Shown here in pieces: positions 54,201 to 60,041 of a stretch of 64,000 nucleotides of DNA. Numbering within the stretch: position 1 is the first letter of the stretch; each line of letters begins with the position of its first letter. The translations under genes and the position numbers were made by a program. The DNA is from Sphingomonas paucimobilis (lineage in GTDB: Bacteria; Pseudomonadota; Alphaproteobacteria; Sphingomonadales; Sphingomonadaceae): assembly GCA_036946325.1 (NCBI GenBank), contig JAQIJL010000001.1:1578630-1642629 (forward strand). The letters are read 5' to 3'. Under the pieces are notes generated by a model that was not told the DNA's origin, made no database searches, and saw only the letters and a program-made list of their open reading frames with translations.

Positions 54201-54213
54201 GCCGAGATACCCG

Positions 54214-55207
54214 TCACCCCGGCCTTGAGCCGGGTGTGGATTCACGAACGAAGTGCAACGGTTTGAAAGCCTCTGCGGGGGTTTGGAAGCCGAGGCATTT
54301 TCTGGGCGTATGATTGTGTCTGGCGAGGATTGCATCGAGTTTTCGCTGGGACAAGTCGGTTGGCTGGGTTTGGCGTGGCAGGTCGCGTCTGAGGCGCCCG
54401 ATGGCGTTTTCGACGCCGCCTTTTTGCCAAGGGGGATCGCGGGTCGCAGAACCAGGTGTCGAGCCGGAGTTTCTGGCCGATCTGCCGGTGCCGTGTGAAC
54501 CCGGTGCCGTTGTCGAAGGTGAGGGACCTGCGAAGCGCGGGGGGCACGGGGCGCAGCATGCGCACGAGTGCCCTGGCGACGGGATCGGCCTTGAGGCTGT
54601 CCTGCCGCAGGGCAAGGGTCAGGCGCGAGCTGCGCTCGTGGACGACGATGACGGCGTGGCCCGGCTTGGAGAAGAGCATGGCGTCGGCTTCCCGGTGTCC
54701 GGATTGCTCGCGGGTCGCGACGTCGGCCGGGCGCTCGTGGATCGAACGGCCGGTCGGGCGCGGCCAGCCCCCTTTGGTGCGCCAGCCTCGCTTGTACTTT
54801 GCGCGCGGCAGGTAATGGCGCCAGCGCCGGTCGTTGGTACGCCGGAGCCGGGCATGGACGAAGCGGTAGATCGTCTCGTGGCTGATGACCGGATGCCCCG
54901 CCTCGCGCATCAGACGGCCGCAGACCTGCTCGGGCGACCAGCCCGCGGCCAGTCGATCGAGGACGGTTTCGCGCAAGGCGTCTTCGCGTTCGAGCCGGCA
55001 ACCGCTCCAGCGCCGCGCTGCCGCCTGTGCCTGGGCATAGACCGGTCGGTACCCGATCTTCGTGCCCGTGTTCCGCTTCAGCTCGCGCGAGATCGTCGAT
55101 GGCGTGCGATCCAGAGCTGCAGCGATTTGCCGGATCGATCGCCCGGCTTCACGAAGCCGGGCAATCGAACAGCGTTCCTCAAGCGTAAGCTGGCAATAGG
55201 TCGACAT
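54214..55207 (-). pseudogene. IS30-family transposase, frameshifted at G5 run 54431-54435
   Basis: HTH YCQLTLEER...STISRELKRN, ISHETIY, TFDNG. PWQKGGVEN and TPRKCLGFQTP are in a shifted frame. Confidence 0.88.
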
Positions 55208-55251
55208 GGCAACACCTGTCTCAGATGTTGCACTTCGTTTGTGAACTCAGG
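54235..55251 (-). mobile_element. IS30-family insertion sequence (about 1017 bp)
   Basis: 26-bp imperfect IRs (20/26 identical) resembling IS30 TGTAGATTCA...TGCAACA. Inferred GGG target duplication. Confidence 0.9.
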
Positions 55252-55353
55252 GGGGTCCCGCTTCTTCTTCTTCTTCTTCTGCGGTCGGAAAGAAGCGGGA
55301 CCCCGGATCAGGTCCGGGGTGACGATGGGGTGCACCCGACAGTCAATGGCCGC

Positions 55354-59956: not shown

Positions 59957-60041
59957 CGTCACCCCGGGCTTGACCCGGGGTCCCGCTTCTTCTTCTGCAA
60001 CGTGGCCAACGGGCGGGACCCCGGATCAAGTCCGGAGCAAC
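59957..60041. repeat. CGTC-type REP dimer (intact relative of the IS30 target)
   Basis: cgtcaccccgggcttgacccggggtcccgcttctt...gcgggaccccggatcaagtccgg. Confidence 0.85.

Follow-up and report, generated by a model that had tools for sequence, protein, structure and literature searches.

An IS30-family element that appears to insert into Ssn-related hairpin repeats in one orientation and to take its transposase stop codon from the target

A hairpin repeat in the genome of Sphingomonas paucimobilis is interrupted by an insertion sequence (IS) of the IS30 family, which lies in a 64,000-nucleotide stretch of DNA analysed as a whole (the window). The element very probably represents a widespread clade in which the transposase directs insertion to a single position at the base of an Ssn-related hairpin, and in a single orientation. 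This specificity, which we deduce from the positions of resident copies here and in other genomes, appears strongly supported. In intact copies the transposase gene leaves the element and ends on a stop codon within the repeat.

An IS30-family element inside a hairpin repeat

The element under study, which we name IS-A, has three copies in this genome (3.78 Mb, 66.9% G+C), namely copy A in the window and its sisters B and C; the name IS-B is kept for a second IS30 element. Alignment of the three copies sets the limits of the window copy at 54235-55251 (minus strand, 1017 bp). Copies B (C1:1424500-1425515) and C (on the other strand, about C2:507716-508731) are intact and measure 1016 bp each. 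Read in transposase orientation, the element starts CCTGAGTTCAC... and ends ...GAATCCACA, with terminal inverted repeats of 25 bp that match at 20 of 25 positions; the CC tip of the left repeat is constant whatever the target, as seen from off-target sites. The whole sits inside a repeat unit, CGTCACCCCGG..CCGGGGTCCCGC, and the features of the site are:

54212..54234, plus strand: head and hairpin of the interrupted unit, CGTCACCCCGGCCTTGAGCCGGG; gives six codons and a stop; matches the SRM motif (PMC11893778)
54232..54234, no strand: target-site duplication, copy 1, GGG (CCC in transposase orientation)
54235..54259, minus strand: right inverted repeat (IRR), GTTGCACTTCGTTCGTGAATCCACA; encodes LHFVREST, the element end being a codon boundary
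55227..55251, minus strand: left inverted repeat (IRL), CCTGAGTTCACAAACGAAGTGCAAC; 20/25 identical to the IRR
55252..55254, no strand: target-site duplication, copy 2, GGG
55255..55266, plus strand: tail of the interrupted unit, GTCCCGCTTCTT
55290..55324, minus strand: intact partner unit, inverted, AAGAAGCGGGACCCCGGATCAGGTCCGGGGTGACG; forms a REP doublet with the interrupted unit
59957..59992, plus strand: uninterrupted unit, a paralogous empty site, CGTCACCCCGGGCTTGACCCGGGGTCCCGCTTCTTC

Deletion of 54235-55251 together with one GGG restores ...CCTTGAGCCGGGGTCCCGCTTCTT / CGTCACCCCGGCCTTGAGCCGGGGTCCCGCTTCTT, with the same architecture as the unit at 59957-59992. This confirms the original prediction that an IS30 element had inserted in a REP hairpin. 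The spacer between the two units of the doublet is filled by a (CTT)n microsatellite (window 55262-55280); other doublets have shorter CTT/GAA runs in their spacers, and spacer length looks variable.

Some 195 type-1 units, with the consensus AGAAGCGGGACCCCGGaTCAAGtCCGGGGTGACG, and 67 type-2 units are spread over the genome. Copies A, B and C occupy three different repeat units at the identical nucleotide position and in the identical orientation, and three such coincident hits among ~195 units in 3.78 Mb would have a chance probability of roughly 1e-14, if they are independent.

An empty site in a related species was found for copy B but not for the window copy. At the orthologous intergenic site of copy B, the congener G122 carries the uninterrupted unit GAAGCGGGACCCCGGATCAAGTCCGGGGTGACGG, and the congener G078 carries no repeat; the repeat therefore came first at this locus and the IS later. 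The joined flanks of the window copy gave no contiguous match in 40 relatives, because its two flanking genes are not adjacent elsewhere. The unit is also polymorphic at the copy B site (L094 and L096 compared with C1:1424.3-1425.7 kb of this genome), with two species that have it and a third without, so that movement or loss of these repeats has occurred within the genus.

The transposase and its missing stop codon

Copies B and C encode the same intact transposase of 330 amino acids, ending ...LHFVREST and then PGSSPG. In a profile search it scores 232.1 bits against the curated IS30 model NF033563 (cut-off 80), and the match covers the whole profile with residues 37-303, being complete by residue 303 of 330. 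An HTH_38 domain (PF13936; E = 2e-16) lies at the N-terminus, in residues 6-46, and the DDE triad consists of D175, D232 and E266, the latter two separated by 33 residues. In the IS30 family the E usually follows the second D after about 33 residues. The element belongs to this family, and the window copy is a defective member of it.

The last eight codons encoded by the IS (LHFVREST) are the right inverted repeat itself. No stop occurs there in the transposase frame, and the ORF enters the target and stops 18 nt further on. In B and C the frame beyond the IRR comprises six hairpin codons (PGSSPG) followed by a TGA, the complement of the GTCA head of the repeat. Both sisters are open through the IRR, and neither of these intact copies carries the internal stop that would have spoken against the original prediction.

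The window copy differs from its sisters by one extra base, which divides its coding sequence:

54429..54430, minus strand: frameshift, one extra base; AA on the plus strand against a single A in the sister copies
54242..55207, minus strand: ATG-initiated ORF, 321 aa; transposase sequence (HTH domains, D175, D232) as far as residue ~259, in another frame beyond it
54214..54615, minus strand: C-terminal frame; E266 motif WQKGGVEN ... LHFVREST; leaves the IS and ends PGSRPG, stop

Where the sister copies read GCCAGGGGG, the window copy reads GCCAAGGGGG (54424-54436). A tblastn alignment of the transposase to the window copy splits at residue 259, and the 321-aa ORF ends at an out-of-frame TGA within the IRR. 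As the original prediction held, the C-terminal frame, ...LHFVRESTPGSRPG, has no stop inside the IS and ends on a TGA of the repeat (54214-54216, within its CGTCA). The tail is PGSRPG and not PGSSPG because this repeat unit has a different loop-closing pair. Tails had been expected to vary with the target; they do, but only slightly, because the target is stereotyped.

The window copy differs from B and C at 9-10 positions, including an E to G change in the conserved DNGTEF motif, and B and C differ from each other at one. It is best described as a decayed, frameshifted pseudogene, which the original prediction had not recognised. We find it improbable that the window copy is functional and its frameshift the product of misassembly or of programmed frameshifting. 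The single-base length difference does adjoin a run of five identical bases (CCCCC, transposase strand), but the copy also has the other 9-10 differences, the site has no slippery heptamer, and the relatives have one uninterrupted transposase ORF. With the window copy taken as a pseudogene, the claim that the transposase uses the stop of the REP is notional for this copy, and real for its two intact sisters.

In an in silico circular form with abutted inverted repeats, the ORF would continue beyond EST for 10 codons if the spacer has 2 bp and for 58 codons if it has 3 bp, and inspection of this IR-IR junction by eye gave no convincing -35/-10 promoter pair. A plasmid collection searched with the element returned fragments and repeat matches alone, and no named element.

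The target resembles Ssn-related repeats

Repeats of similar build have been reported to flank small ssDNA nucleases of the GIY-YIG type across many phyla, with Sphingomonas among the hosts; the report gives the NTS as CGTCATTCCCGCGMAVGCGGGAATCYRG and a degenerate SRM pattern, HGTCWY..YYVSBRH..WNVSBRG..RNCYNB, and makes no mention of IS30 elements (PMC11893778). The consensus sequences of both repeat types found here, type 1 and type 2, fit the SRM pattern, which has 373 matches in the genome against 35-42 in three Markov-1 simulated genomes, an excess of about 10-fold. Inverted units at 261779 and 262141 enclose a small, ssnA-like GIY-YIG gene (PF01541; C3:261848-262066), an arrangement known from ssnA (PMC11893778), and a second GIY-YIG match (C2:969895-970116) adjoins a type-2 unit and, directly, an IS-B copy.

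The target thus shares with the SRM/NTS repeats (PMC11893778) the CGTCA head, the hairpin and the flanking of a small GIY-YIG gene, and by these features it matches an Ssn-related, NTS-like hairpin repeat. Ssn is reported to cut ssDNA upstream of the repeat, whose 5' end is the CGTCA head; the insertion point of the IS, by contrast, is at the other base of the hairpin. The doublet resembles the BIMEs of RAYT-associated REPs in form only.

Relatives share the site, the orientation and the stop

A scan of one genome per species yielded 80 loci with transposases 54-77% identical to that of IS-A. Their hosts are Sphingomonadales, other Alphaproteobacteria, Gammaproteobacteria, Acidobacteriota and Dehalococcoidia (Chloroflexota), with four phyla reported. 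In eight of ten other host genomes the target hairpin is repeated 17-213 times, and a reversed-pattern control gave 0. Both flanks were readable at 71 sites, that is 68 of the relative loci and the three copies of this genome, and for these we tabulated flank, orientation and stop, as the original prediction had proposed for copies and homologues.

A perfect 3-bp direct repeat (DR) borders the element at 57 of the 71 sites, and a TGA stands exactly at codon 7 at 58 of them. The frame is open through the IRR (...LHF[KE]CEST) in all 78 of the 80 loci that have a readable IRR-encoded motif. Of 68 sites, 55 have RTGAC to the right of the element at the fixed distance and none has it in the mirror-image place to the left (0/68), so the palindromic hairpin alone cannot be the recognition feature. 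This bears out the prediction that an IS30 subgroup targets CGTC repeats in a fixed orientation. The reconstructed target, in transposase orientation, is kGGAyyC^, the hairpin and RTGACG. Its position weight matrix peaks at +10..+20 (C.GG.ATGACG), where most of the information lies.

An independent protein set gave the same picture. Roughly 7000 relatives were detected overall; the set comprises the 120 closest clusters, mostly metagenomic, of which 118 were scored for their tail. The tail has six residues in 102 of the 118 and reads PGSSPG 56 times; longer tails start PGSSPGRR..., the translation of a repeat whose TGA is replaced by CGA. Copies that sit in repeats with CGA, AGA or GGC for the TGA likewise have open ORFs, with tails of 8-58+ residues. 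At one locus (L113, G128:C1:3329389-3330360), with the repeat head GGGGCGACG, the frame is open for hundreds of codons outward, giving 716 aa. Dependence on the target for termination, as originally proposed, holds in the literal sense (58/71 sites, 102/118 clusters); a functional need for it is improbable in view of IS-B, described below.

Within the genus, a separate search of 200 genomes added further copies with the same junctions. A relative at E <= 1e-60 is present in 12 of 201 genus genomes, a patchy distribution that is typical of IS.

One relative, from an uncultured alphaproteobacterium (L013, CAVUII010000002.1), is flanked by a direct repeat of ~40 bp, TTAGGCTTTTTCAGTGCTGCCAGCAATAAAGCCAAGCCCC, and not by the usual 3 bp. 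This direct repeat covers the spacer of a repeat doublet; it would be either a very long target duplication or the outcome of insertion into a tandemly duplicated doublet.

Identical IS copies outside the repeat

The Dehalococcoidia genome G048 (a MAG, CBDHCW01) has almost no repeats and one target hairpin, and identical IS copies occupy look-alike sites in it that are not repeats. Each of these sites has its own 3-bp DR and keeps ATGAC at the same distance. They fix the boundary of the IS, exclude a hairpin travelling with the element and argue for sequence read-out by the transposase. As a separate observation, at least six identical copies were counted in this host (L062-L067), most of them in non-repeat sites with ATGAC 16-20 nt from the insertion point.

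Two other accounts of the stereotyped junctions can be weighed at this point. If the right-hand hairpin and TGACG belonged to the mobile element, as its own terminator and stop, no repeat would be targeted at all, and the likeness of the right flank in most copies would follow. We regard this as scarcely credible, since the genome holds ~195 units without any IS, the joined flanks restore a full unit, the orthologous locus in G122 has an uninterrupted one, and the identical IS copies of G048 have quite different right flanks, with their own 3-bp DR at the stated boundary. Moreover, the right flanks of A and B differ at 2 of 24 nt, against ~1% in the IS body. Insertion might also lack site specificity, with copies surviving better in harmless intergenic repeats; the repeats are indeed intergenic and insertions are tolerated there, but survival bias cannot yield one position, one 3-bp register and one orientation in >55 independent sites across phyla, and we consider it very improbable.

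Target subtype and a sister lineage with its own stop

In a maximum-likelihood tree of the transposases, the elements found in the repeat with a 7-nt loop (CCCGGnTCAAGnCCGGG) form one clade (support 100/99), which is nested among lineages from the repeat with a 4-nt loop (TCCCGCnnnnGCGGGA). Sphingomonads host elements of both loop types, and the same division is seen in this genome, where IS-A lies in type-1 units (3/3) and IS-B in type-2 units (3/3). By this tree, the target subtype follows the transposase. Eleven positions conserved in the type-1-targeting clade and rare elsewhere are scattered over the protein, and the HTH region is not enriched in them.

IS-B is ~50% identical to IS-A and sits in the 4-nt-loop repeat type. 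Its copies are:

C3:299.6-300.9 kb (near): IS-B copy
C3:401.4-402.5 kb (near): IS-B copy
C2:970222-971277: IS-B copy, with a TTC duplication

Two congeners carry relatives of IS-B, with seven copies in G168, and the insertion position and orientation are the same throughout this lineage. Its ORF ends ...GALQT at a TGA within its own IRR (G-TGA-ATC), because shortly before the IRR a difference of 1 nt shifts the frame. It stops internally, yet it targets the repeats and multiplies, and therefore the read-through tail is required for neither.

The resemblance between the type-2 target and the IS end was also considered and set aside. TGGATTC of the type-2 repeat equals positions 3-9 of the IRR tip, a match of 7 nt that is weakly significant once sliding is allowed, and the insertion point misfits the geometry of IS30 'IR-targeting'.

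The borrowed stop could be adaptive, either because the repeat is needed for termination or because a hairpin in the last six codons regulates or damps expression; full activity or proper dosage of the enzyme would then be confined to correctly targeted copies. In keeping with this, in-frame stops inside the element are absent from every sampled member of the clade, the last base of the IS completes a codon, with the TGA 18 nt away in both repeat subtypes, and this TGA falls within the best conserved part of the repeat. We nonetheless judge an adaptive role to be unlikely. IS-B, with its internal TGA, still has three copies here and seven in G168, ORFs stay open with tails of 8-58+ residues where the TGA of the repeat is mutated, and the NF033563 profile is complete well before the tail, at residue 303 of 330. 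In addition, an in-frame TGA has a prior of one in three and could merely be inherited. Probably, then, the borrowed stop is a tolerated by-product and not a requirement, because the sister lineage stops in its own IRR and targets the same repeats.

Proposed mechanism and significance

Based on the above data, we propose that the transposase picks one nucleotide, in one orientation, at the base of an NTS-like hairpin. The asymmetric target of ~30 bp would be read as sequence by the transposase itself. The distal arm and the TGACG head, which lie at 10-20 nt from the cut, carry most of the target information, and from this we infer sequence read-out by the transposase and not by a host factor. 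In this compact element the ORF overlaps the IRR, runs into the target and stops at the TGA 18 nt later. The missing stop may be a consequence of the overlap of the ORF with an IRR that cannot gain a stop in that frame, and it would be tolerated because the preferred target supplies the TGA so reliably.

A wider proposal is more tentative, and we hold it to be plausible without calling it probable. An undescribed, phylum-spanning IS30 clade may consist of dedicated, orientation-specific parasites of Ssn-related repeats, recognizing an asymmetric target of ~30 bp with the CGTCA head as the strongest determinant (the Ssn nuclease needs the same head). Its subclades may have been re-tuned to different repeat subtypes, and its own stop codon given up in view of so dependable a target.

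With these observations IS30 joins the families whose members home to repeated extragenic palindromes, and the Ssn/NTS repeat systems, described recently from many phyla, are tied to a mobile element. A compact DDE transposase that would pick a single nucleotide and a single orientation within ~30 bp of target, with subclades tuned to different repeats, offers a tractable model of specificity. There are also consequences for annotation: the transposase gene ends outside the element, so that IS bounds drawn from the ORF and ORFs trimmed to the IS are both wrong, and many short 'hypothetical' tails (PGSSPG, FPLSRE) are translated repeats.

Comparison with known systems

Our literature search covered IS30 in combination with REP, dRS3, target specificity and termination codon, and found no description of this behaviour; a named, annotated relative of the element may exist in ISfinder. 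REP targeting and a target-supplied stop are each known, and it is their combination in an IS30 clade that we take to be new.

IS30 of E. coli and IS1655 of Neisseria meningitidis likewise have one DDE transposase with an N-terminal HTH and a DD(33)E motif, inverted repeats of ~25 bp and a duplication of 2-3 bp. Kiss et al. are said to have reported in 2007 that IS1655, too, makes a 3-bp duplication. Unlike these two, the present element has an ORF without a stop inside the element, and its 1016 bp place it at the small end of the family. Like the present element, IS30 and IS1655 strongly favour defined hot-spot sequences; IS30 itself goes to near-palindromic hot spots or to its own ends (PMC9333248). 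The hot spots described for IS30 and IS1655 are near-palindromes with central insertion, whereas the target here is an abundant hairpin repeat, asymmetric, cut at its base and entered in one orientation.

Among elements that target REPs, Tobes and Pareja (PMC1525189) listed the families IS3, IS110, IS4, IS256 and IS5, and IS30 is not on this list. The known examples are IS1397, ISKpn1 and ISPsy8 (IS3), IS621, ISPa11, ISPpu9, ISPpu10 and ISRm19 (IS110) and ISRm22 (IS4). IS-A shows what these authors call a 'type 1 association', in that halves of a broken REP flank the IS, rebuild the consensus when joined, and do so at the same position in all copies. It differs from the REP-targeting elements in that its target is of an Ssn-related type found in several phyla, and not a species-specific REP.

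Stops supplied by the target are known for IS870 and ISMt1 (CTAG target), IS1547, IS1110 and IS1239 (PMC13630536 and references cited there). As with IS870, no in-frame stop lies inside the element and the preferred target provides one. In IS870, however, a TAG is created at the junction itself, whereas here the stop is 18 nt inside a structured repeat. Copies of IS1239, following a deletion specific to their lineage, have random tails of 1-57 residues, in contrast to the near-constant tail of six residues observed here, and, compared with IS870 and IS1239, the trait is conserved across a deep clade.
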